This document shows, piece by piece, positions 333 to 61,575 of a DNA stretch of 64,000 nt. The position numbers and the translations under genes are program-made. The stretch spans positions 217,496,001 to 217,560,000 of the forward strand of contig OZ024741.1 of the NCBI GenBank assembly GCA_964016885.1, in the 5' to 3' direction. This stretch comes from Eledone cirrhosa (lineage: Eukaryota). The first letter of the stretch is position 1. Every line of letters begins with the position of its first letter. The notes under the pieces are model-generated. The model had not been told where the DNA came from, did not search any database, and saw only the letters and a list, made by a program, of their open reading frames with translations.

Positions 333-335
<3 letters not shown>
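40..335 (+). mobile_element. Octopus-type SINE, 3' portion with RTE-like tail
   Basis: Core CACTGTAAATGTGGTTGGTGTTAGGAAGGGCATCC and a 3' end CCCATGCAAGCGTGGAA..CGGACGTTAAACG(TGA)n resembling the RTE 3' ends in this window. Contains two tandem ~48-bp units (88-137, 138-186). Left boundary approximate. Confidence 0.75.
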
Positions 336-14579: not shown

Positions 14580-15431
14580 TCATCATCATCACCACTACCA
14601 CCATCATCATCATATTATGTCCAATTTCTATACTGGTATGGGTTGGATGAGTTAGCACAGTCCAAGACTAGATGGGTCAGAGAGACCTCATCTTACTCAT
14701 ATATTACATATTTCGGCATGGTTACTATAGTTGGATGCCCATCCTAGTGCCAACCACTTTGCAGAGTGTACTGGGTGCATTTTATAGTGACACCAGCACG
14801 ACCACTTTACATACTGCACTGGGTACATTTTATTGTGGCACCATCACCACCACCACCACTTTACAGAGTGTGCTTGGTGTATTTACTGTGGCAACAGCAC
14901 TACCATTTTATGGGATTACAGAGTGTACCGAGTGTATTTATCATGGCACCAACACTACCACTTTACAGAGTGTACTGTGTATATTTTATCATTGCATCTG
15001 CACTACCATGTTACAGAGTGTACTGGGTGTATTTTATCATAGCACCAACACTACCACTTTACAGAGTGTACCGAGTGTATTTTATCATAGCACCAACACT
15101 ACCACTTTACTGAGAGTACTGGGTGTATTTTATCATGGCACCAGTACTACCACTTTACTGAGTGTACTGGGTGTATTTTATCATGGCACCAGTACTACCA
15201 CTTTGCAGAGTGTACTGGGTCCATTTTATTAATACACCTGCACTATTACTTTATAGGGTATACTAAGTGTATTTTATTATTGCATCAACACTATCACTTT
15301 ACAGAGTGTACTGGGTGTATTATATCATGACACCAGTACTACCACTTTACAGAGTGTACTGGGTGTATTTTATCATGGCACCAGTACTACCACTTTACAG
15401 AGTGCACTGGGTGTATTTTATCATGGCACCA
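14580..15431 (-). repeat. SINE remnant (14580-14760) continuing into ~14 degenerate 48-bp units
   Basis: (CAT)n tail and GGATGCCC core followed by the repeated unit CACTTTACAGAGTGTACTGGGTGTATTTTATCATGGCACCAGTACTAC. Confidence 0.85.
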
Positions 15432-21998: not shown

Positions 21999-22210
21999 CA
22001 TCATCATCATCATCGTTTAACGTCCATCTTCCACGCTAGCATGGGTTAGACGGTTTTGTTCCATTTGATGCGGGAATGGTCGGGAGAACACGTCTCGCTT
22101 GCACGGAACTGTTTCTGGCAGGTTTTTTACAACTGGATACCCTTCCTAACACCAACCACATTTACAGTGTGGGCTGGGAGCCTTTTCACCGTGTCTCCTA
22201 CATGGCCACA
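21998..22210 (-). mobile_element. SINE with (CAT)n tail, same family as 40-335
   Basis: (TCA)n-CGTTTAACGTCC..GCATGGGTT..CCCTTCCTAACACCAACCAC..CAGTGTGGGCTGGG; about one 48-bp unit. Confidence 0.8.
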
Positions 22211-22321
22211 GTTATATACAATGCTTATTGAGCCCTCTTTGGATTTGGGTCTTCATAATTATTATTACTATATATATTATATATATCTGTATAATAATTG
22301 TTATATATATATATATATATA

Positions 22322-24108
22322 AAGGAGGCGTGGAAATGTCATTATGAGAGACTGATGAATGTGGAGAACGAATGGGAGAGAAAAATTACCCTCAGTAGAT
22401 CCGACAGAGGGACCAGCTATTGAGAATATAGGGCCCAAGAGGCGATTAAGGAAATGAAAAATGGTAAGGCTGCTGGACCATCGGGGATAGTTGCTGAGAT
22501 GCTGAAGGCATCAGGGGACGTAGGCACTAAACTGGTTGCACGCATCATCAATCAGGCTATATATGGTGGTGTTATACCCAAAGACTGGTGCAGCAGTATT
22601 CTCATAAATTGCTACAAAGGTAAAGGGGATGCTCTGGAGAGGAGCAATTATAGGGGTATAAAACTGATGGATCAGGTTATGAAAGTGACAGAAAGGATAT
22701 TAGCACAACTAATTAGAGAAAGGGTCAAACTAGATGAGATGCAGTTTGGTTTTGTGCCTGGGAAAAGTACAACAGATGCCCTCTTCTTGGTGAGACAATT
22801 ACAAGAGAGGTTCTTAGAGAAAAATAAGCCACTATACTTAGCCTTTGTTGACCTAGAGAAAGCCTTTGATAGGGTACCCCGATCTGTCATCTGGTGGTCC
22901 CTAAGGAAACTAGGTGTTGAGGAATGGCTTGTGAGGACAATGCAAACTTTGTTCAGAGGTGCTGTCAGTAAAGTCAGGGTAGGAATGGAGTTTAGTGAGG
23001 AATTCCAGATACAAGTAGGAGTACATCAAGGTTTGGTCCTCAGCCCGCTCTTGTTCATTATAGTCCTCCAAGCCATAACAGAGGAGTTTAAGACTGGCTG
23101 TCCATGGGACCTTCTGTATGCTGACGATCTGGTTCTTATAGCAGAATCAGTAGAGGAGCTAGAGAATAAATTCTGGTTATGGAAACAGCAGTTGGAAGCA
23201 AGAGGACTGAGAGTGAACCTAGCTAAGACAAAAGTGTTGATGAGTAGAAAAGAGGACAAAACTCTGATTCCGTCAGGGAAATGGCCATGTTCGATATGCA
23301 GAAAAGGAATTGGCATAAATTCTATAAAATGCACACAATGCAGATCCTGGGTACACAAGAGATGTAGCGGGATAGCAGGAAAACTAACAGGTAGGGAGAA
23401 ATACGTATGCAGTAGATGTACAGGGAAATTAGACAGTAGAAGTCGCATTGATAGACACATTTTTCAAATGCAGGCGGGTGCTATAGAAGTGGTGGATAGC
23501 TTCCGGTACCTAGGAGATCAGATTAGTATGGGAGGGGGGTGTTCCGAGGCCATAGTATCTAGAATAAGGACGGGTTGGAAGAAGTTTAGGGAGCTGCTTC
23601 CTCTGCTGACGAAGAAGGGTTTCTCCCTGCGTACGAAAGGCCGGTTATATGATGCCTGTGTGAGGAGCGCGATGCTGCATGGTAGTGAGACATGGGCAGC
23701 AACTGCAGAGGATATGCGATGGCTGGAGAGAAATGAGGCAAGCATGCTCCGTTGGATGTGCAATGTCAATGTGCGTGAACACAACCCAGAATGAATGTGT
23801 TGAGAGAGAAACTGTGTCTGAGAGGGATAGAATCTAGTGTGCGAGAGAGAAGACTGAGGTGGTATGGACATGTGATGCGCATGGAGGATGACCGATGGGT
23901 GAAGAAGTGCCAGGAAATGCCAGTTGAAGGGAGACGTGGTAGAGGTAGACCACGAAAAACTTGGGCAGAGGTGGTGAGAACAGACCTAAGATCGCTGAAG
24001 CTCACGGTGGAGATGACGAAGGACCGTGACAAGTGGAGAGATACTGTGCTGAATAAGACCCATCCTACCCTTGCAAGCAGGGAAAAGCGTACGTAAAATG
24101 ATGATGAT
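22322..24108 (+). mobile_element. 5'-truncated RTE-clade LINE (RT ORF 22454-23794, frameshift, remainder to 24096)
   Basis: KNGKAAGPSGI, NYRGIKL, QFGFVPGKST, AFVDLEKAFDRVP, GVHQG..LSPLLF, YADD, FRYLG, RLRWYGHVMR, RGRGRPRKTW; (TGA)n tail; TA flanks. Confidence 0.93.
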
Positions 24109-27030: not shown

Positions 27031-27387
27031 CATCTAACTCTCACCTGTCTGTCATGTCTTTCATCTGTATGACATCTGTTATCTGTCTATATTTCCAGCT
27101 ACACAATGCAGTACAGCTAGCAAAGTGGTGCCTTCACTATCTCTCACCTGTCTCTCACCTGCCTGTCATCTGAATGTCATCTGTAGTCTGACATCTGTTA
27201 TCTGTCTATATTTCCAGCTACACATTCTCTAAAACTTGCAAAGTGGTGCCTTCAGTTTCTCTCATCTATCTTTCACCTGCTTCTCACCTACCTATCATCT
27301 ATCTGTCACCTGCCTTTCATCTGGATGTCATCTGCCTGTCATCTGTATGTCATCTGTATGACATCTGTTATCTGTCTATATTTCCAG

Positions 27388-27536
27388 CTACACAATGCTG
27401 TACAACTAGCAAAGTGGTGCCTTCACTATCTTTGTGTTCATTTTCTGGATATATTTCCTCAATATGTGAAACATTATAAAACCCTCAGTCTGGAGAACCA
27501 GTTGTTTATTGATAAACACAGATGGCCTCCTGAATG
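27388..27536 (+). CDS. RhoBTB: RhoBTB exon: C-terminal (BACK-like) region
   Basis: LHNAVQLAKWCLHYLCVHF..ENQLFIDKHRWPPEW; acceptor TTTCCAG 27381-27387; donor GTAAGT at 27537, phase 2. Confidence 0.93.
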
Positions 27537-27584
27537 GTAAGTTAGAAACATTCAACAACTTTCACTGGCTCTATCTCTGTCTCT

Positions 27585-27905
27585 TTGTGTAGGGGGTGGA
27601 TTTGTGTGGGGTGTTGTGTGGATGTGTATTTGTGTGGGGGTGTTGTGTATTTGTGTGGGTTTGTGTTTGTGTGGGGGTGTTTGTGTAGATGTGTTTGTAA
27701 GGGTTTGTGTGGGTGTGTTGTGTGTGTTTGTCTTTGTGGGTTTGTGTTTGTGTGTGTTTGCATGTGTATGTTTGTGTGTGTTTGCTTGTGTCTGTGTTTT
27801 TGTGGGGGTTTTGTGCTTGCTTATGTTTGTGTGTTTGCATCAGTTTACTTGTGTGTGTGCGTTTGCATGTATATGTTTGTGTGGGTGTGTGTGAGTGTAT
27901 GTGTG
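27585..27905. repeat. GT-rich low-complexity tract
   Basis: Seen directly. Confidence 0.9.
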
Positions 27906-27917
27906 ACAAATTAAGTG

Positions 27918-28550
27918 GGAGGGTTTAGCCCTAAATACTTAACCCTTGCTAAACAGTACTAGAAGTTTGCTTTAGCAGGATTTTAACTAAGCATTTGTCT
28001 AGCTCTGTACAGACTCTGCCAATCTGCAAGAGGACACATATAACCACGCCTTGGATAACCCTCATTGGCTATGATACCACCTCTGTGCTAAGCTATAGGG
28101 AAAGGTTTTTCTCTGAATGCTTAGCACTTGCTAAACAGTTCTAGAAGTTGGCTTAAGCAGGATTTGAACTACAAATACTGCTAAACATATATCTGATGCT
28201 CTACAGAGTTTTCCAATTCACTGCCAATCATAATTACTTTTCTATTGTTTTAGTTTTTTTGGCTTTTTCTTTCCCTAGTTATGTAAAAGAGATTGAATTA
28301 TTTCAAATAGTGCTAGATGTTGGCCTTAGTGGGATTTGAACTCAGAACATAAAGAGCCAGGCCAAATACTGCTAAGCATTTGTCTGGCACTCTACAAGCT
28401 CTGCTAATGGGCAAGGGGACAAATTTACGGGAAAGGTTTAGCCCTGAATTCTTAGCCCTTGCTAAATAGTGCTAGATAATGGCCTTGGTGGGATTTGAAC
28501 TCAGAACGTAAAGAGCGAGGGCAAATACTGCCTGATTCTCTACAGACCTT
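27918..28550. repeat. Degenerate tandem repeat, 3-4 copies of a SINE-containing unit
   Basis: TTGCTAAACAGT.CTAGA...GGATTTGAACT recurs near 27947, 28128, 28306 (partial) and 28459. Confidence 0.65.
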
Positions 28551-28568
28551 GTTAATAAATTATTGTCA

Positions 28569-28790
28569 ATCATCATCATCATCATCATCATCATTGTTTA
28601 ATGTCTATTTTCCATGCTAGCATGGGTTAGATGAGTTGTCCCATTACAGGAAAGATGGGTCGGGTGACCGTATCTCACTCATATAGGACTGTTTCTGGCT
28701 AGATTTCTATGGCTGGATGCCCTTCCTAATGCCAACCATATTTATAGTGTGGGCTGGGTGCTTTTTGTCGTGACACCTACACCACCACTT
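28569..28790 (-). mobile_element. SINE at the start of the satellite
   Basis: (CAT)n tail, CCATGCTAGCATGGGTT and GGCTGGATGCCCTTCCTAATGCCAACCA running without a break into the 48-bp units. Confidence 0.88.
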
Positions 28791-31700
28791 TACAGGGTGG
28801 GCTGGGTGCTTTTTGTCGTGACACCTACACCACCACTTTACAGTGTGGGCTGGGTGCTTTTTGTGTTTTGCCACCTACACGACCACTTTATAGAGTGGGC
28901 TGGGTGCTTTTTGTCATCGCACCTACACGACCACTTTACAGTGTAGACTGGGTGCTTTTTGTTGTGACTCCTACATGACGAATTTACAGTGTAGGCTGGG
29001 TGCTTTTTGTCTTGGCACCAACATGACCACTTTATAGTGTTGGCTGGGTGCTTTTTGTTGGGACACCTACATGACCACTTTACAATGTGGGCTGGGTGTT
29101 TTTTATCGTGGCACCTACACGACTGCTTTACAGTGAGGACTGGGTGCTTTTTGTTGTAACTCCTGCATGACTGCTTTACAGTGTGGGATGGGTGCTTTTT
29201 GCCACCTACACGACCATTTTACAGTGTGGGCTTGGTGCTTTTTGTCGTGCCACCTACACGACCATTTTACAGTGTGGGCTTGGAGCTTTTTGTTATGACA
29301 CCTACACGACCACTTTACAGTGTGGGCTGGGTGCTTTTTATCGTGGTGCCTACACGACCACTTTCCAGTGTTGGCTGGGTGCTTTTTCTCGTGGCACCTA
29401 CATGATCACTTTGCAGTGTGGGCTGGGTGCTTTTTGTTGGGACTCTGACATGACCACTTTGCAGTGTAGGCTGTGTGCTTTTTGTTGTGACACCTACGTG
29501 ACCACTTTACAGTGTAGGCTGAGAGCTTTTTGTCATGACACCTACACGACCACTTTACAGTGTGGGCTGACTGCTTTTTATTGTGGCGCCTACATGACCA
29601 CTTTCCAGTGTTGGCTGGGTGCTTCTTGTTGTGACTCCTGCATTACCACTTTACAGTGTAGGCTGGGTGCTTTTTGTTTGGGAGACCTACATGACCACTT
29701 TACAGTGTGGGCTAGGTGCTTTTTGTCGTGGCGCCTACACAACGACTTTACAGTGTGAGCTGGGTGCTTTTTGTTGGGACTCCTACATGACCACCTTACA
29801 GTGTTGGCTGGGTGCTTTTTGTCATGACACCAACACGACCATTTTATTGTGTGGGTTGTATGTTTTTTGTCATGAGACCAACACGACCACTTTACAGTGT
29901 GGGCTGTCTGCTTTTTGTTGTGACCTACGCGACCACTTTACAGTGTGGGCTGGGTGCTTTTTATCATGACACCTACACGACCATTTTACAGTGTTGGCTG
30001 AGTGCTTTTTAGTCATGTCACCAACATGACCACTTTATAGTGTGGGCTGGGTGCTTTTTGTTTGGACTCCTACATGACCACTGTACAGTGTGGGCTGGGT
30101 GCTTTTTGTCGTGACACCTACACAACAACTTTACAGTGTGGGCTGTGTGATTTTTGTTGTGACTCCTATATGACCACTTTGCAGTGTGGGCTGTGTACAT
30201 TTTTTTCGTGGCACCTACACAACCATTTTACAGTGTGGGCTGGCTGCTTTTTGTTTTTACTCCTGCACAACCACTTTACAGTGTGGGCTGGGTGCTTTCT
30301 GTTGGGAATCCTACATGACCACTTTACAGTGTTGGCTGGGTGCTTTTTGTCGTGACACCTACACAACAACTTTACAGTGTGGACTGTGTGCTTTTTGTTG
30401 TGACTCCTATATGACCACTTTGCAGTGTGGGCTGCGTACATTTTTTCGTGGCACATACACGAGCATTTTACAGTGTGGGCTGGCTGCTTTTTGTTGTGAC
30501 ACCTACATGACCACTTTACAGTGTGGGCTGGGGGCTTTTTCTTTAGGAGACCTACATGACCACTTGACAGTGTGGGCTAGGTGCTTTTTGTCGTGGCGCC
30601 TACACGACGACTTTACAGTGTGGGCTGGGTGCTTTTAGTTGTGACACCTACATGACCACTTTACAGTGTGGGCTGGGTGCTTTTGTTCATGTGACCAACA
30701 TGACGACTTTATAGTGTGAGCTGGGTGTTTTTTGTTCGGACTCCTACATGACCACTTTACAGTGTGGGCTGGGTGCTTTTTGTCTTCGCACCTACGCGAG
30801 CACTTTACAGTGTGGGCTGGGTACTTCTTGTTGTGACTCCTGCATTACCACTTTACAGTGTAGGCTGGGTGCTTTTTGTTTGTGAGACCTACATGACCAC
30901 TTTACAGTGTGTGCTAGGTGCTTTTTGTCGTGGCGCCTACACGACGACTTTACAGTGTGGGCTGGGTGCTTTTTGTTGGGACTCCTACATGACCACCTTA
31001 CAGTGTTGGCTGGGTGCTTTTTGTTGTAACTCCTACCTGATTAATTTATAGTCTTTCCTAGTGCCAACTACATTTACAGTGAGTGTTGGGTACTTTTTGT
31101 CATGACACCTACACTACCGCTTTACAGTGTGGACTAGGTGCTTTTTATTGTGGCACCTACACGAGCATTTTACGGTGTGGGCTGGGTGCTTTTTGTCGTG
31201 ACTCCTACATGACCACTTTACAGTGTGGGCTAGGTGCTTTTAGTTGTGACACCTACATGACCACTTTACAGTGTGGGCTGGGTGCTTTTTCTTTAAGAGA
31301 CCTACATGACCACTTGACAGTGTGGGCTAGGTGCTTTTTGTCGTGGCGCCTACTCGACGACTTTACAGTGTGGGCTGAGTGCTTTTTGTTGGGACTCCTA
31401 CATGACCACTTTACAGTGTTGGCTGGGTGCTTTTGGTCATGTGACCAACATGACGACTTTATAGTGTGAGCTGGGTGTTTTTTGTTCGGACTCCTACATG
31501 ACCACTTTACAGTGTGGGCTGGGTGCTTTTTTTTGTGACTCCTATATGACCACTTTGCAGTGTGGGTTGTGTACATTTTTTCGTGGTACCTAGACAACCA
31601 TTTTACAGTGTGGGCTGGCTGCTTTTTGTTTTTACTCCTGCACAACCACTTTACAGTGTGGGCTGGGTGCTTTCTGTTGGGACTCCTACATTACCACTTT

Positions 31701-34700
31701 ACAGTGGTGGCTGGGTGCTTTTTGTTGTGACACCTACACAACATCTTTACAGTGTGGTCTGTGTGCTTTTTGTTGTGACACCTACATGACCACTTTACAG
31801 TGTGTGCTGGGTACTTTTTGTTGTGACTCCTACATGACCAATTTACAGTGTCGGCTATGTGCTTTTTGTCGTGGCACCTACCTGACCACTTTCCAGTGTG
31901 GGCTAGGTGCTTTTTGTTTAGCAGACCAACATGACTTCTTGAAAGTGTGGGCTGGGTGCTTTTTGTTGGGACTCCCACATCACCACTTTACAGTGTGAGC
32001 TATGTTATTTTTGTCATGACACCTACAGGACAACTTTACAGTGTGGGCTGTATGCTTTTTGTCGTGCCAACTACATGACCATTTTACAGTGTGGGCTGCG
32101 TGCTTTTTATTGTCTCACCTACACGACCACTCTACAGTGTGGGCTGGGTGCTTTTTGTTGTGACTCCTACACGACCATTTTACAGTGTGGGCTGGGTGCT
32201 TTTTGTGGAGTGTCCTACACGACCACTTTATAGTGTGGGCTGAGTGCTTTTTGTTGTGACTGCTACATGACCACTTTACAGTGTGCGCTGGGTGCCTTTT
32301 GTCGTGACACCTACACGACAACTTTACAGTGTGGGCTGTGTGCTTTTTGTTGTGACGCCTACATAACCACTTTACAGGGTGGGCTGGATACTTTTTGTTG
32401 TGACTCCTACACGACCACTTTACAGTGTGGGCTGGGTACTTTTTTTCGTGGCACCTATACGACCATTTTACAGTGTGCGCTGCCTGCTTTTTGTTGGGAC
32501 TCCTACATGACCACTTAACAGTGTGGGTTGTGTGCTTTTTGTTGGGACTCCTACATGACAACTTTACAGTGTGGGCTGGGAGCTTTTTGTCGTGACACTT
32601 ACACGAAAACTTTACAGTGTGGGCTGGGTGATTTTTTGTTGTGACTCCTACATGACCACTTTGCAGTGTGGGCTGAGTACTTTTTCTCGTAGCACCTACA
32701 CGACCACTTTACAGTGTGGGCTGGGTACATTTTTTTCATGGTACCTACACGATTATTTTGCAGTGTGGGCTGGTTGCTTTTTGTTGTGACTCCTACACGA
32801 CCACTATACAGTGTGAGCTGGGTGCTTATTTTTGGACTCCTACATGAAAACTTTACAGTGTGGGCTGGGTGATTTTGTTGGACTCCTATATGACCACTTT
32901 GCAGTGTGGGCTGTGTACATTTTTTGGTGGCACCTACACGAGCATTTTACGGTGTGGGCTGGCTGCTTTTTGCTGTGACACCTACATGACCACTTTATAG
33001 TGTGGGCTGGGTGCTTTTTGTCATGGCGCCTACACGACGACTTTACAGTGTGGGCTGAGTGCTTTTTGTTGGGACTCCTACATGACCACTTTACAGTGTT
33101 GGCTGGGTGCTTTTTGTCGTGACACCTACACGACAACATTACAGTTTGGTCTGTGTGCTTTTTGTTGTGACGCCTACATAACCACTTTACAGGGTGGGCT
33201 GGGTACTTTTGGTTGTGACTCCTACACGACCACTTTACAGTGTGGGCTGGGTACTTTTTTTCGTGGCACCTATCCGACCATTTTACAGTGTGCGCTGCAT
33301 GCTTTTTGTTGGGACTCCTACATGACCACTTTACAGTGTTGGCTGGGTGCTTTTGGTCATGTGACCAACATGACGACTTTATAGTGTGAGCTGGGTGTTT
33401 TTTGTTCGGACTCCTACATGACCACTTTACAGTGTCGGCTGGGTGTTTTTTTTTTGTGACTCCTATATGACCACTTTGCAGTGTGGGTTGTGTACATTTT
33501 TTCGTCGTACCTAGACAACCATTTTACAGTGTGGGCTGGCTGCTTTTTGTTTTTACTCCTGCACAACCACTTTACAGTGTGGGCTGGGTGCTTTCTGTTG
33601 TGACACCTACATGACCACTTTACAGTGTGTGCTGGGTACTTTTTGTTGTGACTCCTACATGACCACTTTACAGTGTGGGCTAGGTGCTTTTTGTTTAGCA
33701 GACCAACATGACTACTTGAAAGTGTGGGCTGGGTGCTTTTTGTTGGGACTCCCACATCACCACTTTACAGTGTGAGCTATGTGCTTTTTGTCATGTCACC
33801 TACAGGACAACTTTACAGTGTGGGCTGTGTGCTTTTTGTTGTGACTCCTATATGACTACTTTGCAGTGTGGGCTGCGTACATTGTTTCGTGGCACCTACA
33901 CAAGCATTTTACAGTGTGGGCTGGCTGCTTTTTGTTGTGACACCTACACGACCACTTTACAGTGTGGGTTAGGTGCCTTTAGTTGTGGCACCTACACGAC
34001 CACTTTACAGTGTGGGCTGGGTGCTTTTTGTTGGGACTCCTACATGACCACTTTACAGTGTGGTCTATGGGCTTTTTGTTGTGACACCTACATAACCATT
34101 TTATTGTGTGGGCTGTGTGCTTTTTCTCATGACACCAACACAACCACTTTACAGTGTGGGCTGTGTGCTTTTTCTCGTGACACCTACACGACAACATTAC
34201 AGTTTGGTCTGTGTGCTTTTTGTTGTGACCCCTACATAACCACTTTACAGTGTGGGCTGGGTACTTTTTTTCATGGCACCTATATGACCATTTTACAGTG
34301 TGTGCTGCATGCTTTTTGTTGGGACTCCTACATGAGCACTTTACAGTGTTGGCTTGGTGCTTTTGGTCATGTGAGCAACATGACCACTTTATAGTGTGAG
34401 CTGGGTGCTTTTTGTTCGGACACCTACATGACCACTTTACAGTGTGGGCTAGGTGCTTTTAGTTGTGACTCCTATATGACCACTTTGCAGTGTGGGCTGT
34501 GTATATTTTTTCGTGGCACCTACACGAGCATTTTACAGTGTGGGCTGGGGCTGCTTTTTGTTGTGACACTTACACGACAATTTTACAGTGTGGGCTGGGT
34601 GCTTTTTGTTGTGACTCCTACATGACCAATTTATAGTGTGGGCTGGGTGATTTTTGTCATGACACCAATATGACCACTTTATAGTGTGGGCTGGGTGCTT

Positions 34701-37700
34701 TTTGTTGAGACTCCTACATCACCACTATACAATGTGTTGGCTGGGTGCTCTTTGTCGTCCCCCTACCTGATCACTTTACAGTTTGGGCTGGGTGCTTTTT
34801 GACGTGACTCCTGTATCACCACTTTACAGTGTAGGCTGGGTGCTTTTCGTTTAGCAGACCAACATAACTACTTTACAGTGTGGGCTGTGTGCTTTTTGTT
34901 GTAACACCTACATGACCACTTTATAGTGTGGGGCTGAGTGCTTTTTATCGTGGCACCTACACGGCCACTTTACAATGTGGGCTGGGTACATTTTTTCGTG
35001 GCACCTAGGTGCTTTTTGTCGTGGCGCCTACACGACGACTTTACAGTGTGGGCTGGGTGCTTTTTGATGGGACTCCTACATGTCCACTTTACAGTGTTGG
35101 CTGGGTGCTTTTTGTCGTGACATCTACACGACAACATTACAGTTTGGTCTGTGTGCTTTTTGTTGTGATGCCTATATGACCAAAGTATAGTGTGGGCTGG
35201 GTGCTTTTTGTCATGACACCAATACGACCACTTTATAGTGTGGGCTGGGTGATTTTTGTTGTGACACCTACATGACCACTTTATAGTGTGGACTGGGTGC
35301 TTTTGTTGGGACTCCTACATGAACACTTTACAGTGTGGGCTGGGTGATTTTTGTTGTGACACCTACATGACCACTTTACAGTGGGGCTGAGTGCTTTTTC
35401 TCATTGCACCAACACGACCACTTTACAGTGTGGGTTGGGTACATTCGTGGCATCTACACGATTATTTTACAGTGTGGGGTGGGTGCTTTTTGTTGTGACT
35501 CCTACACGACCACTTTACAGTGTGGGCTGGGTGCTTTTTGTTGTGACTCCTGGATGACCACTTTACAGTGTGGGCTGGGTGCTTTTTGTTGGACTCCTAC
35601 ATGACCACTTTACAGTATGGGCTGGTTGCTTTTTGTTGTTACTCGTACACTACCACTTTAGAGTGTGGGCCGGGTGCTTTTTGTTGGGACTCCCTCATGA
35701 CCACTTTACAGTGTTGGCTGGTCGCTTTTGGTCATGTCACCAACATGACCACTTTACAGTGTGGGATGGGTGCTTTTTGTTGTGACACCTACACGACAAC
35801 ATTACAGTTTGGTCTGTGTGCTTTTTGTTGTGACGCCTACATAACCACTTTACAGGGTGGGCTGGGTACTTTTGGTTGTGACTCCTACACGACCACTTTA
35901 CAGTGTGGGCTGGGTACTTTTTTTCGTGGCACCTATCCGACCATTTTACAGTGTGCGCTGCATGCTTTTTGTTGGGACTCCTACATGACCACTTTACAGT
36001 GTTGGCTGGGTGCTTTTGGTCATGTGACCAACATGACGACTTTATAGTGTGAGCTGGGTGTTTTTTGTTCGGACTCCTACATGACCACTTTACAGTGTCG
36101 GCTGGGTGTTTTTTTTTTGTGACTCCTATATGACCACTTTGCAGTGTGGGTTGTGTACATTTTTTCGTCGTACCTAGACAACCATTTTACAGTGTGGGCT
36201 GGCTGCTTTTTGTTTTTACTCCTGCACAACCACTTTACAGTGTGGGCTGGGTGCTTTCTGTTGTGACACCTACATGACCACTTTACAGTGTGTGCTGGGT
36301 ACTTTTTGTTGTGACTCCTACATGACCACTTTACAGTGTGGGCTAGGTGCTTTTTGTTTAGCAGACCAACATGACTACTTGAAAGTGTGGGCTGGGTGCT
36401 TTTTGTTGGGACTCCCACATCACCACTTTACAGTGTGAGCTATGTGCTTTTTGTCATGTCACCTACAGGACAACTTTACAGTGTGGGCTGTGTGCTTTTT
36501 GTTGTGACTCCTATATGACTACTTTGCAGTGTGGGCTGCGTACATTGTTTCGTGGCACCTACACAAGCATTTTACAGTGTGGGCTGGCTGCTTTTTGTTG
36601 TGACACCTACACGACCACTTTACAGTGTGGGTTAGGTGCCTTTAGTTGTGGCACCTACACGACCACTTTACAGTGTGGGCTGGGTGCTTTTTGTTGGGAC
36701 TCCTACATGACCACTTTACAGTGTGGTCTATGGGCTTTTTGTTGTGACACCTACATAACCATTTTATTGTGTGGGCTGTGTGCTTTTTCTCATGACACCA
36801 ACACAACCACTTTACAGTGTGGGCTGTGTGCTTTTTCTCGTGACACCTACACGACAACATTACAGTTTGGTCTGTGTGCTTTTTGTTGTGACCCCTACAT
36901 AACCACTTTACAGTGTGGGCTGGGTACTTTTTTTCATGGCACCTATATGACCATTTTACAGTGTGTGCTGCATGCTTTTTGTTGGGACTCCTACATGAGC
37001 ACTTTACAGTGTTGGCTTGGTGCTTTTGGTCATGTGAGCAACATGACCACTTTATAGTGTGAGCTGGGTGCTTTTTGTTCGGACACCTACATGACCACTT
37101 TACAGTGTGGGCTAGGTGCTTTTAGTTGTGACTCCTATATGACCACTTTGCAGTGTGGGCTGTGTATATTTTTTCGTGGCACCTACACGAGCATTTTACA
37201 GTGTGGGCTGGGGCTGCTTTTTGTTGTGACACTTACACGACAATTTTACAGTGTGGGCTGGGTGCTTTTTGTTGTGACTCCTACATGACCAATTTATAGT
37301 GTGGGCTGGGTGATTTTTGTCATGACACCAATATGACCACTTTATAGTGTGGGCTGGGTGCTTTTTGTTGAGACTCCTACATCACCACTATACAATGTGT
37401 TGGCTGGGTGCTCTTTGTCGTCCCCCTACCTGATCACTTTACAGTTTGGGCTGGGTGCTTTTTGACGTGACTCCTGTATCACCACTTTACAGTGTAGGCT
37501 GGGTGCTTTTCGTTTAGCAGACCAACATAACTACTTTACAGTGTGGGCTGTGTGCTTTTTGTTGTAACACCTACATGACCACTTTATAGTGTGGGGCTGA
37601 GTGCTTTTTATCGTGGCACCTACACGGCCACTTTACAATGTGGGCTGGGTACATTTTTTCGTGGCACCTAGGTGCTTTTTGTCGTGGCGCCTACACGACG

Positions 37701-40700
37701 ACTTTACAGTGTGGGCTGGGTGCTTTTTGATGGGACTCCTACATGTCCACTTTACAGTGTTGGCTGGGTGCTTTTTGTCGTGACATCTACACGACAACAT
37801 TACAGTTTGGTCTGTGTGCTTTTTGTTGTGATGCCTATATGACCAAAGTATAGTGTGGGCTGGGTGCTTTTTGTCATGACACCAATACGACCACTTTATA
37901 GTGTGGGCTGGGTGATTTTTGTTGTGACACCTACATGACCACTTTATAGTGTGGACTGGGTGCTTTTGTTGGGACTCCTACATGAACACTTTACAGTGTG
38001 GGCTGGGTGATTTTTGTTGTGACACCTACATGACCACTTTACAGTGGGGCTGAGTGCTTTTTCTCATTGCACCAACACGACCACTTTACAGTGTGGGTTG
38101 GGTACATTCGTGGCATCTACACGATTATTTTACAGTGTGGGGTGGGTGCTTTTTGTTGTGACTCCTACACGACCACTTTACAGTGTGGGCTGGGTGCTTT
38201 TTGTTGTGACTCCTGGATGACCACTTTACAGTGTGGGCTGGGTGCTTTTTGTTGGACTCCTACATGACCACTTTACAGTATGGGCTGGTTGCTTTTTGTT
38301 GTTACTCGTACACTACCACTTTAGAGTGTGGGCCGGGTGCTTTTTGTTGGGACTCCCTCATGACCACTTTACAGTGTTGGCTGGTCGCTTTTGGTCATGT
38401 CACCAACATGACCACTTTACAGTGTGGGATGGGTGCTTTTTGTTGTGACACCTACACGACAACATTACAGTTTGGTCTGTGTGCTTTTTGTTGTGACGCC
38501 TACATAACCACTTTACAGGGTGGGCTGGGTACTTTTGGTTGTGACTCCTACACGACCACTTTACAGTGTGGGCTGGGTACTTTTTTTCGTGGCACCTATC
38601 CGACCATTTTACAGTGTGCGCTGCATGCTTTTTGTCGTGACACCTACACGACAACATTACAGTTTGGTCTGCGTTCTTTTTGTTGTGACGCCTGCAGTGT
38701 GGGCTGGGTACTTTTGGTTGTGACTCCTACACGACCACTTTACAGTGTGGGCTGGGTACTTTTTTTCGTGGCACCTATCCGACCATTTTACAGTGTGCGC
38801 TGCATGCTTTTTGTTGGGACTCCTACATGACCACTTTACAGTGTTGGCTGGGTGCTTTTGGTCATGTGACCAACATGACGACTTTATAGTGTGAGCTGGG
38901 TGTTTTTTGTTCGGACTCCTACATGACCACTTTACAGTGTCGGCTGGGTGTTTTTTTTTTGTGACTCCTATATGACCACTTTGCAGTGTGGGTTGTGTAC
39001 ATTTTTTCGTGGTACCTAGACAACCATTTTACAGTGTGGGCTGGCTGCTTTTTGTTTTTACTCCTGCACAACCACTTTACAGTGTGGGCTGGGTGCTTTC
39101 TGTTGGGACTCCTACATTACCACTTTACAGTGGTGGCTGGGTGCTTTTTGTTGTGACACCTACACAACATCTTTACAGTGTGGTCTGTGTGCTTTTTGTT
39201 GTGACACCTACATGACCACTTTACAGTGTGTGCTGGGTACTTTTTGTTGTGACTCCTACATGACCAATTTACAGTGTCGGCTATGTGCTTTTTGTCGTGG
39301 CACCTACCTGACCACTTTCCAGTGTGGGCTAGGTGCTTTTTGTTTAGCAGACCAACATGACTTCTTGAAAGTGTGGGCTGGGTGCTTTTTGTTGGGACTC
39401 CCACATCACCACTTTACAGTGTGAGCTATGTTATTTTTGTCATGACACCTACAGGACAACTTTACAGTGTGGGCTGTGTGCTTTTTGTCGTGACACCTAC
39501 ATGACCACTTTACAGTGTGGGCTGTATGCTTTTTGTCGTGCCAACTACATGACCATTTTACAGTGTGGGCTGCGTGCTTTTTATTGTCTCACCTACACGA
39601 CCACTCTACAGTGTGGGCTGGGTGCTTTTTGTTGTGACTCCTACACGACCATTTTACAGTGTGGGCTGGGTGCTTTTTGTGGAGTGTCCTACACGACCAC
39701 TTTATAGTGTGGGCTGAGTGCTTTTTGTTGTGACTGCTACATGACCACTTTACAGTGTGCGCTGGGTGCTTTTTGTCGTGACACCTACACGACAACTTTA
39801 CAGTGTGGGCTGTGTGCTTTTTGTTGTGACGCCTACATAACCACTTTACAGGGTGGGCTGGATACTTTTTGTTGTGACTCCTACACGACCACTTTACAGT
39901 GTGGGCTGGGTACTTTTTTTCGTGGCACCTATACGACCATTTTACAGTGTGCGCTGCCTGCTTTTTGTTGGGACTCCTACATGACCACTTAACAGTGTGG
40001 GTTGTGTGCTTTTTGTTGGGACTCCTACATGACAACTTTACAGTGTGGGCTGGGAGCTTTTTGTCGTGACACTTACACGAAAACTTTACAGTGTGGGCTG
40101 GGTGATTTTTTGTTGTGACTCCTACATGACCACTTTGCAGTATGGGCTGAGTACTTTTTCTCGTAGCACCTACACGACCACTTTACAGTGTGGGCTGGGT
40201 ACATTTTTTTCATGGTACCTACACGATTATTTTGCAGTGTGGGCTGGTTGCTTTTTGTTGTGACTCCTACACGACCACTATACAGTGTGAGCTGGGTGCT
40301 TATTTTTGGACTCCTACATGAAAACTTTACAGTGTGGGCTGGGTGATTTTGTTGGACTCCTATATGACCACTTTGCAGTGTGGGCTGTGTACATTTTTTG
40401 GTGGCACCTACACGAGCATTTTACGGTGTGGGCTGGCTGCTTTTTGCTGTGACACCTACATGACCACTTTACAGTGTGGGCTAGGTGCTTTTAGTTGTGA
40501 CACCTACATGACCACTTTATAGTGTGGGCTGGGTGCTTTTTGTCATGGCGCCTACACGACGACTTTACAGTGTGGGCTGAGTGCTTTTTGTTGGGACTCC
40601 TACATGACCACTTTACAGTGTTGGCTGGGTGCTTTTTGTCGTGACACCTACACGACAACATTACAGTTTGGTCTGTGTGCTTTTTGTTGTGACGCCTACA

Positions 40701-43700
40701 TAACCACTTTACAGGGTGGGCTGGGTACTTTTGGTTGTGACTCCTACACGACCACTTTACAGTGTGGGCTGGGTACTTTTTTTCGTGGCACCTATCCGAC
40801 CATTTTACAGTGTGCGCTGCATGCTTTTTGTCGTGACACCTACACGACAACATTACAGTTTGGTCTGCGTTCTTTTTGTTGTGACGCCTGCAGTGTGGGC
40901 TGGGTACTTTTGGTTGTGACTCCTACACGACCACTTTACAGTGTGGGCTGGGTACTTTTTTTCGTGGCACCTATCCGACCATTTTACAGTGTGCGCTGCA
41001 TGCTTTTTGTTGGGACTCCTACATGACCACTTTACAGTGTTGGCTGGGTGCTTTTGGTCATGTGACCAACATGACGACTTTATAGTGTGAGCTGGGTGTT
41101 TTTTGTTCGGACTCCTACATGACCACTTTACAGTGTCGGCTGGGTGTTTTTTTTTTGTGACTCCTATATGACCACTTTGCAGTGTGGGTTGTGTACATTT
41201 TTTCGTGGTACCTAGACAACCATTTTACAGTGTGGGCTGGCTGCTTTTTGTTTTTACTCCTGCACAACCACTTTACAGTGTGGGCTGGGTGCTTTCTGTT
41301 GTGACACCTACATGACCACTTTACAGTGTGTGCTGGGTACTTTTTGTTGTGACTCCTACATGACCACTTTACAGTGTGGGCTAGGTGCTTTTTGTTTAGC
41401 AGACCAACATGACTACTTGAAAGTGTGGGCTGGGTGCTTTTTGTTGGGACTCCCACATCACCACTTTACAGTGTGAGCTATGTGCTTTTTGTCATGTCAC
41501 CTACAGGACAACTTTACAGTGTGGGCTGTGTGCTTTTTGTTGTGACTCCTATATGACTACTTTGCAGTGTGGGCTGCGTACATTGTTTCGTGGCACCTAC
41601 ACAAGCATTTTACAGTGTGGGCTGGCTGCTTTTTGTTGTGACACCTACACGACCACTTTACAGTGTGGGTTAGGTGCCTTTAGTTGTGGCACCTACACGA
41701 CCACTTTACAGTGTGGGCTGGGTGCTTTTTGTTGGGACTCCTACATGACCACTTTACAGTGTGGTCTATGGGCTTTTTGTTGTGACACCTACATAACCAT
41801 TTTATTGTGTGGGCTGTGTGCTTTTTCTCATGACACCAACACAACCACTTTACAGTGTGGGCTGTGTGCTTTTTCTCGTGACACCTACACGACAACATTA
41901 CAGTTTGGTCTGTGTGCTTTTTGTTGTGACCCCTGCATCACCACTTTACAGTGTAGGCTGGGTGCTTTTCGTTTAACAGACCAACATAACTACTTTACAG
42001 TGTGGGCTGTGTGCTTTTTGTTGTAACACCTACATGACCACTTTATAGTGTGGGGCTGAGTGCTTTTTATCGTGGCACCTACACGGCCACTTTACAATGT
42101 GGGCTGGGTACATTTTTTCGTGGCACCTAGGTGCTTTTTGTCGTGGCGCCTACACGACGACTTTACAGTGTGGGCTGGGTGCTTTTTGATGGGACTCCTA
42201 CATGTCCACTTTACAGTGTTGGCTGGGTGCTTTTTGTCGTGACATCTACACGACAACATTACAGTTTGGTCTGTGTGCTTTTTGTTGTGATGCCTATATG
42301 ACCAAAGTATAGTGTGGGCTGGGTGCTTTTTGTCATGACACCAATACGACCACTTTATAGTGTGGGCTGGGTGATTTTTGTTGTGACACCTACATGACCA
42401 CTTTATAGTGTGGACTGGGTGCTTTTGTTGGGACTCCTACATGAACACTTTACAGTGTGGGCTGGGTGATTTTTGTTGTGACACCTACATGACCACTTTA
42501 CAGTGGGGCTGAGTGCTTTTTCTCATTGCACCAACACGACCACTTTACAGTGTGGGTTGGGTACATTCGTGGCATCTACACGATTATTTTACAGTGTGGG
42601 GTGGGTGCTTTTTGTTGTGACTCCTACACGACCACTTTACAGTGTGGGCTGGGTGCTTTTTTTTGTGACTCCTGGATGACCACTTTACAGTGTGGGCTGG
42701 GTGCTTTTTGTTGGACTCCTACATGACCACTTTACAGTATGGGCTGGTTGCTTTTTGTTGTTACTCGTACACTACCACTTTAGAGTGTGGGCCGGGTGCT
42801 TTTTGTTGGGACTCCCTCATGACCACTTTACAGTGTTGGCTGGTCGCTTTTGGTCATGTCACCAACATGACCACTTTACAGTGTGGGATGGGTGCTTTTT
42901 GTTGTGACACCTACATGACAACTTTACAGTGTGGGCTGTGTGATTTTTGTTGTGACACCTATATGACTACTTTGCAGTGTGTGCTGTGTATATTTTTTTA
43001 GGCGGCTATTTTACAGTGTGGGCTGGCTGGTTTTTGTTGTGACTCCTACACGACCACTTTACTGTGTGGGCTGGGTGCTTTTTGTTGGGACTCCTACATG
43101 ACTACTTTACAGTGTGGGCTGTGTGCTGGGTGTTTTTGTTGGGACTCCTACATGACCATTTTACAGTGTGGGCTGGGTGCTTTTCGTCATGGTGCTTTTT
43201 GTTGTGACTCCTACACGACCGCTTTACAGTGTGGGCTGGGTGCTTTTTGTTGTGACTCCTACACGACTACTTTACAGTGCGGGCTGGGTGCTGTTAGTCA
43301 TGGTGCCTATACGACCACTTTACGACGGGTGCTTTTTGTTGGGACTCCTACACGACCACTTTACAGTGTTGGCCGGGTGCTTTTTTCATGACACCAACAA
43401 GAGCACTTTATAGTGTGGGGTGGGTGCTTTTTGTTGGGACTCCTACATGAACACCTTACAGTGTGGACTGGGTGCTTTTTGTCGTGACACCTACACGAAA
43501 ACTTTACAGTGTGGGTTGGGTACATTTTTTCGTGGCACCTACACGATTATTTTACAGTGTGGGGTGTGTGCTTTTTGTTGTGACTCCTACATAACCACTT
43601 TACAGTGGGGCTGAGTGCTTTTTCTCGTGGCACCTACACGACCACTTTACAGTGTGGGTTGGGTACACTTTTTCGTGGCACCTACACGATTATTTTACAG

Positions 43701-45050
43701 TGTGGGGTGTGTGCTTTTTGTTGTGACTCCTACATAACCACTTTACAGCGTGGGCTGGGTGCTTTTTGTCGTCCCACCTACACGACCACTTTCCAGTGTG
43801 CTCTGGGTACATTTTTTCGTGGCACCTACACGACCATTTTACAGTGTGGGCTGGCTGCTTTTTGTTGTGACTCCTACACGACCACTTTACATTGTGGGCT
43901 GGGTGTTTTTGTTGTGACTCCTGCATGACCACTTTACAGTGTAGGCTGGGTGCTTTTTGTTTAGGAGACCTACATGACCACTTTGCAGTGTGGGCTCTGC
44001 TTTTTGTCATGACACCTACATGACTACTTTACAGTGTGGGCTGGGTGTTTTTTCTTGTGTCTCCTACACGACCACTTTACAGTATGAGCTAGGTGCTTTT
44101 AGTCGTGGTGCCTACATGACCAGTTCACAGTGTGGGCTGGGTACTTTTTGTTTGGATTCCTACATGACCACTTTACAGTGTTGGCCGGGTGCTTTTTGTT
44201 ATGACACCAACATGACCATTTTACAGTGTGGGCTGTGTGCTTTTTGTTATGTCACCAACATGACCATTTTACAGTTTGGGCTGGGTGGTTTTTGTTGTGA
44301 CTCCTACATGACCACTTTGGAGTGTGGGCTGTGTGCTTTTTGTTGTGACTGCTACATGACCACTTTACAGTGTGGGCGGGGTGCTTTTTGCTTGGACTCC
44401 TACATGACCACTTTACAGCGTGGGCTGGGTGCTTTTCATTGCGGCTCCTACACAACCACTTTACAGTGTGCTCTGGGTACATTTTTTCGTGGCACCTACA
44501 CGCCCATTTTACAGTGTGGGCTGGCTGCTTTTTGTTGTGACACCTACACGACCACTTTACAGTGTTGGCCGGGTGCTTTTTGTCATGCCACCAACATGAC
44601 CACTTTATAGTGTGGGCTGGGTGCTTTTTGTTCGGACTCCTACATGACCACTTTACAGTGTGGGCTGGGTGCTTTTTGTTGTGACTACTACATTACCACT
44701 TTACAGTGTTGGCCTGGTGCTTTTTTTTATGACTCCTACATGACCACTTTGGAGTGTGGGCTGTGTGCTTTTTGTGGTGACTACTACATGACCCCTTTAC
44801 AGTGTGGGCTGGGTGCTTTTCGTTGCGGCTCCTACACGACCATTTTACAGTGTGGGCTGCGTGCTTTTTGTTGTGACTACTACATTACCAATTTACAGTG
44901 TTGACTGGATGCTTTTTGTTGTGACTGCTACATGACCACTTTACAGTGTTGGCCGGGTACCTTTTGTCCTGGTACCTACACGACTACTTTACAGTGTGGG
45001 CTGGCTGCTTTTTGTTGTGACACCTACACAACCACTTTACAGTGTGGACT
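28736..45050. repeat. 48-bp satellite, ~340 units, with 2663-bp and ~7.4-kb higher-order duplications
   Basis: Consensus CACTTTACAGTGTGGGCTGGGTGCTTTTTGTTGTGACACCTACATGAC; identical ORF-track peptides recur at offsets 2663 and 7426-7522. Confidence 0.97.
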
Positions 45051-45093
45051 GCCAATAATAATTGATTTTCCATTGGTTTTGTTTTTTTCCTAG

Positions 45094-46500: not shown

Positions 46501-47611
46501 CTGAGGTTGATCAAATCTCAGCCTGTGTCTCAGTGACATAAAACTGACCGCACTGGTCACTTTTATTCAGCCATAGCCATCGAGATGCTTCCATGATTTT
46601 GATGGCTCTCCTCCTGCTTGCTCCCATAATATCCAGAGTTCCGTAGGCTTTACCAAAGAAACAATTACATTATACAAGACAATGATTATAATGAACACAG
46701 TAGGACATAGATACTTTAAATTAGAACATTAATCATTCACTGGATACATCTTTAATTACATTATGCCAAAATAGGATATAAAATTCACCCACTACACTCT
46801 GTAAAATAAGTGATGTTAAGAAGGACATACCAATGTTTAAAACATATGACAAAGACATGATTCTCTGACCTGAAGCGTCTTGGACTGTGATAATCCATCC
46901 AATCCATACCAGCATGGAGCACAAACATAAAATGATTTGATGATGGTGATAATTCAATATGCCAAGACAGTAGAGACTAAAAACTCATTATGGTCCACTT
47001 AAACTTTGGTATAAACTACTGGTGGCCCAGAAACCATATATATAATATAATATAATTGTTTCTAATATAATATAATGTAATATAACAAGCCAGACAATTA
47101 GATATCGCCTAGGGTCACCGATTTCCACACACTCAATGATTTCACAAAAATTGTATGTTGCAAATACGAATTTGCGTATCAGAGCGGACACAATATGTTA
47201 CATAGTGGATATATATATATATATATAAAATCAAGGGAGTGTAAACACAGAAAATATCTTTAAAAATAATATATAAATTCCAAAAAATTCACTGTACTTA
47301 CTGTATGTTCCCTTCCTGCGGTTTCAGATCCCAAACAAATAGATAATCCAAGCAGATTTTCATTGAGAAAGAGATCATCATCAGAAGGCTTTTCTCTCTT
47401 GGAGAATATAAAATTCCTGAGTTAAAATTACGAACTGGCGCTATCCCAAACTGCTTCAGAATGAGAGCAAATGAATGATGAAACAGTTTTGTCATGGTAC
47501 CGTGTGCAAAGGCAAAAAGCATGGTGGACAGGTCAATCCTGTGCTGCTAAAAATAGCAGCCATTCAAACGATCAAAGGTTTCTCTACCATTTGGGAGAAT
47601 ATATATATATA

Positions 47612-59239: not shown

Positions 59240-59830
59240 GCCACCCTGTCAGGTGGTAGCATTGGTGCCATGACAAAATGCACACAGTCCACCCAATAAG
59301 ATGGTAGTGCTGGTGCCACAATAAAGAGTACCCAGTCCACACTGTCTTTGGTAGTGGCAATGTAATGATAAAGAGCACCCTATCCACCCTGTCAGAAGGC
59401 TATGGCAGTACTGTGATAAAAAACACCCAGTCCACTCTGTAAAGTGGTAGTTGTGATGTCATGATAAAGAGCACCCAGTCCACCCTGTAAGGTGGTAGTG
59501 TTAGTGCCATGATAAAATGCACCCTGTCCACCCTGTAGCATGGTAGTACTGGTGCCACAATAAAGAACAACCAGTGCACACTGTCAGCTGGTAGTGGTGT
59601 GCCATGATAAAAACACCCAGTCCACTCTGTAAAGTAGTAGTGCTGGTGTCACAAAGAGGACCCACATCACCCAGTTACGTGGTCGTGATGGTGTCACAAT
59701 AAAGAGGATCCAGTCCACACTGTCAAGTGGTAATGGCAGTGCCATGGTAAAGAGCACCCAGTTCTCTCTATCAAGTGATAGTGGTGGTGCCATTATAAAG
59801 AGCACCCAGTCCACCTTGTTAAGTGATAGT
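59240..59830 (+). repeat. Degenerate 48-bp SINE-derived array, opposite orientation to the big satellite; resumes at ~60995-61190
   Basis: GTGCCATGATAAAGAGCACCCAGTCCACTCTGTAAAGTGGTAGT units. Confidence 0.8.
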
Positions 59831-59988
59831 GCAGGAGTAGTGAAGCAAGAGGGAGGGCGAGGTTGGTGGTTCACCCCTGGCGACACTTTTATGGGGGCCT
59901 AATTTGGGGTCTGCTGTAGGCTACAAGTGTTCTTTTAACGCTGCAGCATAATATTATAATTGTCTACAGACTAATTAATATATATATA

Positions 59989-60866
59989 ATGAGAATGAAC
60001 CTAGCTAAGACAAAAGTGTTGATGTGTAGAAAAGAGGACAAAACTCTGATTCCATCAGGGAAATGGCCAGGTTCGATATGCAGAAAAGGAACTGGCATAA
60101 ATTCCATAAAATGTACACAATGCAGATCTTGGGTACACAAGAGATGTAGTGGGATAGCAGGCAAACTAACAGGTAGGGAGAAATATGTATGCAGTAGATG
60201 TACAGGGAAATTTGACAGTAGAAGTCGCATTGATAGACACATTTTTCAAATGCAGGTGGGTGCTATAGAAGTGGTGGATAGCTTCCGGTACCTAGGAGAT
60301 CAGATTAGCATGGGAGAGGGGTTCCGAGGCCATAGTCTCTAGAATAAGGGCGGGTTGGAAGAAGTTTAGGGAGCTGCTTCCTCTGCTGATGAAAAAGGGT
60401 TTCTCCCTGTGTACGAAAGGCCGGTTTTATGATGTCTGTGCGAGGAGCATGATGCTGCATGGTAGTGAGACATGGGCAGCAACTGCAGAGGATATGCGAC
60501 GGCTGGAGAGAAATGAGGCAAGTATGTTCCAATGGATGTGCAATGTAAATATGTGTGAACGACCCAGCATGGATGTGTTAAGAGAGAAATTGTGTCCGAG
60601 AGGGATAAATTGTAGTGTGCGGGAGAGGAGACTGCGATGGTATATACGTGATGCGGATGGAAGATGACCGATGGGTGAAGAAGTGCCAAGAAATGCCAGT
60701 TGAAGGAAGACCACGAAAAACATGAGCAGAGGTGGTGAGAGCAGACCTCAGATCGCTGAAGCTCACGGTAGAGATGACGAAGGACCGTGACAAGTGGAGA
60801 AGTGCCAAATAGGACCCATCCCACCCTTGCAAGCAGGGAAAAGTGGATGTAAAATGATGATGATGA
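59989..60866 (+). mobile_element. Second 5'-truncated RTE LINE copy, decayed
   Basis: Closely similar to 23209-24108, with frameshifts; (TGA)n tail. Confidence 0.92.
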
Positions 60867-61307
60867 ATACTTCAAGAGTTATATATTTATATATATTAAG
60901 AGCAATATGTATTTTTTGTGGGGGGCCTGCAGGTGGCAAACTGAAGGGCTGCTCTGGGCGGCACATACTAGCTACGTCACTGAGTGCGGCTGTCAGATAA
61001 AGAACACCCAGTCCACTCTGTTGAGTGATAGTGTGGGTGCCATGATAAAGAGCACCCAGTTCACTCTGTCAAATGATAGTGGTGGTGCCATGGTAAAGAG
61101 CACACAGTCTACTCTATCAAGTGATAGTGGTGGTGCCATGTTAAAACACTCCAATAACCCCTGTGAAGTGGTTGCAATTAAGAAAGGCCACCAGCAGTAA
61201 CAATCTTGTGTGAAAGCAGTGTATCAGTGAGACACAGTCGTCTGCCCTCTCTAGCCTCAGAACATGATAGCCTGTCTAACCCATGAAGCAAGGACAATAG
61301 ACATAAA

Positions 61308-61575
61308 ATGTGGCTTAGTGATTAGAGAAATGGGTTTGCAATACACTGTATTTCACATTGCTCCAGTTTACTCAGCTGATGAAATGAGTTGCGACGTCAC
61401 TGGTGCCAAGCTGTATTGACCTTTGTCTTTCTCTTCAACAGCATTGGTGGCGTCGAGAGGGGACACTGGCATGCATGGGTGACTGCTGGTCTTTCACAAA
61501 AACACTTTGACTGGACTTGTACCTCACAGGGGAACTTTCTAGGTGAAAAACCCATGGTCATCCATGACCAAAAGT
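61308..61575 (+). mobile_element. tRNA-derived SINE, partial
   Basis: TGTGGCTTAGTG head and TATTTCACATTGCTCCAGTTTACTCAGCTG core. Confidence 0.65.

Follow-up and report, generated by a model that had tools for sequence, protein, structure and literature searches.

Roughly 23% of human tandem arrays derive from transposable elements, with segments of short and long interspersed elements (SINEs and LINEs) amplified as tandem repeats (review, PMC9659126). The closest described systems are sSat1-3, the SINE-derived satellites of 56 squamate genomes (Vassetzky, Kosushkin and Ryskov 2023, PMC10702118), in which one SINE segment is repeated at tens to thousands of loci, each array running into a longer terminal unit that extends to one SINE end; array length varies from 4 units to over 1,000, with 320 units in the Indian cobra, and locus-specific subvariants alternate. 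Among molluscs, tandem arrays of SINEs lie in bivalve introns, 659 of them in Scapharca broughtonii, and unequal recombination was proposed as their cause (Martelossi et al. 2024, PMC11481361). SINEs with RTE-type tails and bipartite RTE-derived SINEs, including the Ceph-SINEs of cephalopods, have also been described (Kojima 2018, PMC5786205). Here we describe a 16.3-kb array of a 48-bp unit that forms one end of a short retroposon in the last intron of a RhoBTB gene. The window analysed is a 64,000-bp stretch of Eledone cirrhosa DNA (contig OZ024741.1, 217,496,001 to 217,560,000); positions are counted from its first letter.

Matches to BTB and Ras domains were obtained for the exon at 12,646-13,599, which shares 86% identity with Octopus bimaculoides RhoBTB (protein P0001). 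By sequence, the window is octopod DNA and the gene is RhoBTB, whose residues 1-155 (P0001 numbering) fall outside the window when P0001 is mapped to it. The array makes up 16,315 of the 17,557 bp (93%) of the last intron, and it occupies and has enlarged a real intron, as the initial annotation held. Segmentation gave 340 units starting at 28,737, and Tandem Repeats Finder (TRF) reported period 48 at 28,741-31,040 (47.9 copies) and 31,073-45,051 (290.3 copies). The units are on average 79.7% identical to each other and 87.6% identical to their own consensus, and a 22-nt unit motif had 280 matches in the window and none in 100 shuffles. We suggest, with a probability of about 0.68, that the array is the 5' part of a truncated copy of an RTE-tailed retroposon that was inserted with at least two units, which then multiplied in place. 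A non-coding copy with an RTE-like tail would have been inserted, likely by LINE-driven target-primed reverse transcription, and truncated within a stretch of at least two 48-bp units; these would then have multiplied, likely by unequal exchange and most recently in kilobase blocks.

Read in its own sense, the element consists of units, a body of about 145 bp and a (GAT)n tail, and this order was found in 7/7 copies, that is, the big array and six shorter copies with about 0.6 to 16 units each (Table 1). The tail is present in six of the seven and eroded at 61.3 kb. The element is non-coding, short and dispersed (7 copies in 64 kb, bodies 56-80% alike). As in the squamate satellites (PMC10702118), the tandem units run into a longer terminal unit, here body plus tail, and the same segment has been amplified at several loci (three arrays in the window, and pieces in sequencing runs X1, X4 and X5). 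All arrays of the unit in the window adjoin a body (3/3, one of them across a nested insertion), so that arrays standing apart from a body were not found there, and alignment bore out the earlier observation of a common exit point from the body at 14.6 kb and 28.6 kb. The copies first listed are all real by TRF, segmentation and the 22-nt motif; that list had missed 46,775-46,950, 60,996-61,310 and a remnant of a body/unit junction inside the big array (31,053-31,080), which could stem from recombination with a second copy or from an old duplication at the junction. A variant unit comes after this remnant.

The initial annotation had taken the unit for an internal segment of a SINE. The 5' end of every copy, however, is made of units, and the copies break off at scattered points within the unit. 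Pol III boxes or shared sequence 5' of the last unit were found in none of the 7 copies (250 bp of flank per copy, or 86 bp where the edge of the window intervenes), and neither ARAGORN nor Rfam gave a tRNA or Rfam match in the window. Because no copy shares sequence beyond the units, the unit is the 5'-terminal part of the copies seen and not a demonstrated internal segment. The name SINE is justified only by the tail, the small size and the dispersal, the small-RNA head being missing. Here the element differs from the tRNA-headed parents of the squamate satellites (PMC10702118), and also from Ceph-SINEs, since no head or Ceph/CORE domain was seen in its copies, although it shares an RTE-type 3' end and a (GAT)n tail with the SINEs of Kojima (PMC5786205). 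A text search for the V/Meta/Ceph central domain, using a 9-nt core term, found no match to this core motif in the supplements of PMC4758252, PMC4824008 and PMC5786205, in which gapped alignments may conceal matches (one file each of PMC4758252 and PMC4824008 lay outside the search); one 8-nt core match occurred in a bivalve V-SINE row of the PMC4824008 supplement.

An older duplicate of the intron end and acceptor, uninterrupted by the element, provides a paralogous empty site. It aligns with 45,048-45,122 at 74% over 88 columns (E 4.5e-12; score 98 against a shuffled maximum of 48.5). The left flank of the element corresponds to this duplicate as far as 28,572 and the right flank does so from 45,048 onwards, the two flanks sharing 11 bp of it. 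We interpret these shared 11 bp as a target-site duplication that has short stretches of microhomology with the tail and with the unit. Because the uninterrupted duplicate matches both flanks, the last intron would have measured about 1.1 kb before the insertion.

Unit statistics left out body-derived segments, terminal partial units and units shorter than 40 or longer than 56 bp, which kept 331 of the 340 big-array units. Mean unit identity was 79.7% in the big array (340 units), 79.5% in the 14.6-kb array (14 units) and 67.6% in the 59/61-kb array (16 units), as against 63-69% between arrays; it does not increase with array length in these three. Long squamate loci are homogeneous (94% at 320 units, PMC10702118), whereas the 340 octopod units reach 79.7%. 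Leave-one-out assignment placed 331/331 big-array units and 14/14 units of the 14.6-kb array correctly, but only 9/16 of those at 59/61 kb, the other seven going to another array's consensus. A unit tree of 30 of the 139 big-array types and all 35 other units (48 columns; support values are rough, as the bootstrap had not settled) had 8 array-label changes against a shuffled mean of 30.4, with 0/200 shuffles as low, so units of different loci do not intermix as one dispersed family. Type-A units (28.6, 22, 62 and 0.1 kb) accompany type-A bodies, the units forming a clade (100/95) as do the bodies (87/92). Since unit types follow body subfamilies, the difference between the A and B consensuses is, by sequence comparison, a subfamily difference, much of it apparently inherited. 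The initial annotation was thus right that the consensuses are distinct, and the units do cluster by array; its conclusion that the arrays expanded separately is not supported, given this inheritance and the seven misassigned units.

In the unit tree, one branch (98/80) unites the units next to the body from the 28.6-, 62-, 22- and 0.1-kb copies; unit two of the 0.1-kb copy is of array type, 85% identical to the array consensus. Together with the scattered 5' ends, this grouping points to a template that carried at least two units. The copies had been regarded as successive stages of expansion, but their ends are scattered and three short ones go beyond a single unit (the 22-kb and 62-kb copies reach into a second, and the 0.1-kb copy completes two), as in 5' truncation of a multi-unit template; the short copies may therefore be truncations rather than early stages. 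We give little credence to a tRNA-headed SINE with one internal 48-bp segment from which each array arose anew as a monomer. Such an origin would account for the common exit point from the body and the clustering by array, and squamate satellites also usually retain only one SINE terminus (PMC10702118). Against it, the monomer-like copies are headless too and three of them extend into or through a second unit; besides, unit type goes with body subfamily, and no tRNA or Rfam match was obtained.

Self-comparison of the big array by lag scan indicated that its recent growth was by kilobase-scale block duplication. A twin at 95% or more exists for 85% of the 331 units, and 198 of them are later copies of an earlier block, leaving 139 types at 95% and about 9 kb once the recent blocks are subtracted. 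Whole-unit insertions and deletions (indels) distinguish the blocks, which are nested in a series whose identity falls to about 90%. Neighbouring units are 79.0% alike, against 79.7% for random pairs, and no regular higher-order period was found at lags 1-20 (all 79.0-80.3%), while linked variant unit types are interspersed throughout; in the 14.6-kb array, neighbours show a slight similarity (p 0.03). The pattern would fit unequal exchange of multi-unit blocks on a mixed seed.

In SVA, a variable number of tandem repeats (VNTR) lies 5' of the 3' end that is recognised, and the octopod element resembles SVA in the position of its array. An alternative that we consider unlikely is that RTE machinery acts on transcripts bearing arrays and inserts ready-made arrays of tens of units in the SVA/VNTR manner, so that the unit number of a copy would mostly reflect truncation length and only the kilobase blocks would be local growth. 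The absence of a head in 7/7 copies, the ends scattered across the unit, units about as diverged as bodies, and big-array neighbours no more alike than random pairs all agree with it; a seed of several mixed units is implied by the interspersion of linked unit types, and other runs, one of them from a relative, also contain pieces with several units and joins of unit to body. On the other hand, each of the three arrays has its own consensus and groups separately, neighbours in the 14.6-kb array are slightly similar, no common unit order was seen by eye between the 14.6-kb and 59/61-kb arrays, and about 9 kb remains after the recent blocks, which is long for one RTE product.

It is also rather unlikely that the near-identical blocks are misjoined or allelic sequence and the true array is nearer 9-14 kb. 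A read spanning the blocks was not seen, one block of 2,663 bp has only 3 mismatches, and the 98.8-99.5% identity of the others lies within the range of allelic differences. Such an assembly artefact is opposed by the whole-unit indels between blocks and their nested series down to about 90%, and a short-read contig agrees without difference with the last 29 array bases and the exon. Even if it were true, at least 139 distinct unit types would remain.

As to how the element moved, a profile made solely of the seven element tails matched both RTE-like 3' ends in the window (E 0.0009 at 60,814-60,855 and E 0.006 at 24,058-24,099), and (GAT)n termini are common to the element and the RTE fragments, suggesting that an RTE-like LINE clade is its likely partner. 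Six loci with full-length RTE relatives were found, and the 48-bp unit was in none of them. Against these six loci the core profile gave weak matches only (best E 0.016, in metagenome contig L002), leaving an origin of the body from a 5' or 3' untranslated region unsupported. The matches in L002, at 1741-1785 and 1970-2010 (E 0.016 and 0.23), hint that the core may be shared with repeats of other animals. The core motif may also occur in fish SINEs and in RTE 5' untranslated regions, which we do not count as evidence.

Outside the window, we compared sequencing runs X1, X4, X5 and X6 with a 521-bp stretch that contains about 2.5 units and the last RhoBTB exon. Matches, nearly all on the units, numbered 19,715 among 16.5 million contigs in X1, 1,048 among 0.76 million contigs in X4, 17,668 among 17.6 million contigs in X5 and 15,887 among 12.5 million reads in X6; these counts of contigs and reads are not copy numbers. 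X5, which differs by about 7.5% over the exon region, comes from a different organism, and these matches show that the unit is a genome-wide family that a relative also has. Multi-unit pieces occur in X1, X4 and X5, and unit-to-body joins were seen as loose ends in 288 contigs of X5, 22 contigs of X4 and 2,050 reads of X6. Pattern scans gave no match in viral contigs and none in metagenome contigs. One X1 contig is identical to 45,023-45,450, across the array/acceptor junction; an X5 contig starts about 17 bp short of that junction, and X6 has no coverage of the exon. Among the X6 loose ends at 44,975-45,013, more than 2,000 reads continue with another, fairly uniform variant of the tandem unit (agreement 0.87), which suggests that the genome contains another array that is younger or larger. 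The earlier picture of seeding inside one gene is not supported: three of the copies fall between exons of RhoBTB as mapped and a fourth is probably within an intron upstream, but those at 46.8, 59-61 and 62 kb lie beyond the stop codon and the unit is found genome-wide.

Several observations weigh against an insertion with at least two units followed by growth in place. The two copies of the target duplication agree at only 8/11 positions and overlap the unit and the tail, and the other copies, several of them embedded in AT repeats, showed no clear target duplication. A full-length master was not seen, the structure of the template being deduced from 7 copies, and the clustering of proximal units depends partly on one extra base at the body boundary. 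Single pairwise alignments of tails with RTE ends exceed the shuffled maximum in only 5/14 comparisons. Units diverge from their consensus by 12.7% (10.7% without CpG sites), close to the body divergence of 10/103 columns; by this likeness much of the array would be about as old as the insertion, but the likeness is also compatible with an array that was already long when inserted. Assembly may have duplicated the 2,663-bp block, whose copies differ by 3 mismatches, and the only contig that crosses the junction, from X1, has 29 array-side letters, below the threshold of 31, while X1 may be the source sample.

The array-bearing intron appears to be still spliced. A 2,314-bp contig of X4 (X4/16) matches 45,093-45,439 without difference and departs at acceptor 45,093 with 1,967 letters remaining, as would be expected of a spliced RhoBTB message, although the kind of the X4 run is not recorded. 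No function is indicated for the 16.3-kb array, and its growth was presumably neutral. The duplicate acceptor near 28,220-28,340 retains its AG (28,277-28,278); if acceptor 28,278 were used, an alternative C-terminus of 20 residues would avoid the array. The duplicate retains a glutamate that O. bimaculoides also has; the real last exon has glutamine at that place. The penultimate exon's acceptor and initial ~50 bp, together with three extra copies of them (25,750, 27,092, 27,211 and 27,381 in all), lie around a 44-bp array at 25,820-27,066, so that satellite-adjacent duplicated acceptors occur in both of two neighbouring RhoBTB introns.

Table 1. Coordinates of the array, its element, the insertion site, RhoBTB and related copies in the window
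Feature	Position	Strand	Basis or remarks
48-bp satellite array, type A, 5' part of element	28,737..45,051	-	~340 units, 16,315 bp; TRF, unit segmentation
Retroposon body, ~145 bp	28,595..28,740	-	conserved core beside units, then RTE-like 3' end
(GAT)n tail (ATC repeat on + strand)	28,569..28,594	-	TRF period 3, 8.7 copies
Remnant of body/unit junction in array	31,053..31,080	-	by eye; weak core hidden Markov model match, E 0.19
Tandem 2,663-bp block duplication	33,090..38,415		3 mismatches
~4-kb block (31.4-35.8 kb) repeated at 38.8-43.0 kb	31,410..42,962		98.8-99.5% identical, two 48-bp unit indels
Older duplicate of intron end and acceptor, uninterrupted paralogous empty site	28,098..28,307	+	
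Putative target-site duplication, left copy, 11 bp	28,562..28,572	+	9/11 match empty site; ~4 bp overlap with tail
Putative target-site duplication, right copy, 11 bp	45,048..45,058	+	10/11 match empty site; first 4 bp fit unit (5' microhomology)
RhoBTB exons	~12,652-13,593, 15,856-15,981, 24,908-25,150, 27,385-27,536, 45,094-45,274		mapping of P0001
RhoBTB penultimate exon	27,385..27,536	+	88% amino acid identity to P0001 585-641
RhoBTB last intron, 17,557 bp	27,537..45,093	+	GT..AG, phase 2; P0001 exon mapping
RhoBTB last coding exon, ends at stop codon	45,094..45,274	+	93% amino acid identity to P0001 636-693
Sister element, type A	86..334	+	two unlike units (86-183)
Sister element, type B, in RhoBTB intron	14,581..15,431	-	tail, body, 14 units
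Sister element, type A, in RhoBTB intron	21,999..22,212	-	~1.1 units
Degenerate sister element, type B	46,775..46,950	+	~0.6 unit
Type-B element divided by nested insertion (59,833-60,983)	59,241..61,310	+	~16 units
Sister element, type A	62,101..62,309	-	~1.2 units
RTE-like LINE fragment	22,424..24,108	+	RVT_1, E 5e-30; last ~40 bp and (GAT)n tail resemble element 3' end

Among the sister copies, TRF found period 48 at 14,753-15,431 (13.9 copies), 59,241-59,831 (12.4 copies) and 60,996-61,145 (3.1 copies). The segment 60,996-61,310 (about 4 units plus body) extends the 59-kb array in register across a nested insertion of about 1.15 kb, and units of the two halves pair in the tree. By eye, the nested insertion has ends like those of a small DNA transposon, and it is interrupted by an RTE fragment that lacks its 5' part and ends in (GAT)n. 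Immediately next to the 62-kb copy lies a nearly perfect GC-rich palindrome (61,994-62,087, about 90 bp, by eye). A second short repeat family is present at 15,676-15,802, 21,800-21,940, 25,179-25,299, 27,905-28,531 and 51,813-52,001, with motifs resembling the Pol III B box at several copies; the copy near 25.2 kb overlaps the donor end of a RhoBTB exon region. Broken PIF1-helicase open reading frames (ORFs), Helitron-like, lie at 18,311-20,941 within a RhoBTB intron. An intact ORF of 747 amino acids (4,214-6,457), located between direct repeats 3,744-3,897 and 7,558-7,711, had no Pfam match. By its motifs alone it resembles a Penelope-type element. Unrelated long arrays are AT-type at 335-2,611 (2.3 kb) and 8,003-11,838 (3.8 kb, with a solitary RTE-type tail at 8,839-8,879) and of a 22/44-bp unit at 52,083-56,819 (4.7 kb). 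Ten tandem arrays together take up 31,057 of the 64,000 bp. Since unrelated arrays also fill the window, growth seeded by a SINE-type element is one of several routes here.

The initial annotation had proposed that repeated seeding from one SINE segment may be an undescribed route to intron growth. As worded, this is not supported, because the squamate paper reports seeding from one SINE segment at many loci (PMC10702118) and the bivalve paper SINE tandem arrays in introns (PMC11481361). The latter case is like ours in host phylum and intronic position, but the bivalve arrays consist of 2-15 whole or truncated SINEs, as against hundreds of 48-bp units, and the text mentions no cephalopod. Squamate satellites lean subtelomeric and the word intron is absent from the main text (PMC10702118), whereas the octopod array is intronic; the TE-derived satellites of the review (PMC9659126) involve other elements and hosts. 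No octopus description of such an element was found in the literature searched, with repeat databases and most subscription papers outside the search, and the element may already be named elsewhere. The finding appears new for octopods, while the kind of event is already described in reptiles.

Taken together, these data extend the seeding of satellites by SINE-type elements from reptiles and bivalves to octopods. It is possible, though doubtful, that octopods carry a headless, RTE-mobilised retroposon with a satellite as its 5' part, whose transcribed, array-bearing copies re-insert with variable numbers of units and seed many thousands of sites. If so, it would scatter ready-made seeds, some of which then swell introns more than tenfold. 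The RhoBTB intron offers an unusually clean record at a single locus, with a paralogous empty site, a target duplication, an increase from about 1.1 kb to 17.6 kb and nested block duplications, and is usable as a test case for how far octopod intron length comes from tandem growth as opposed to new insertions.

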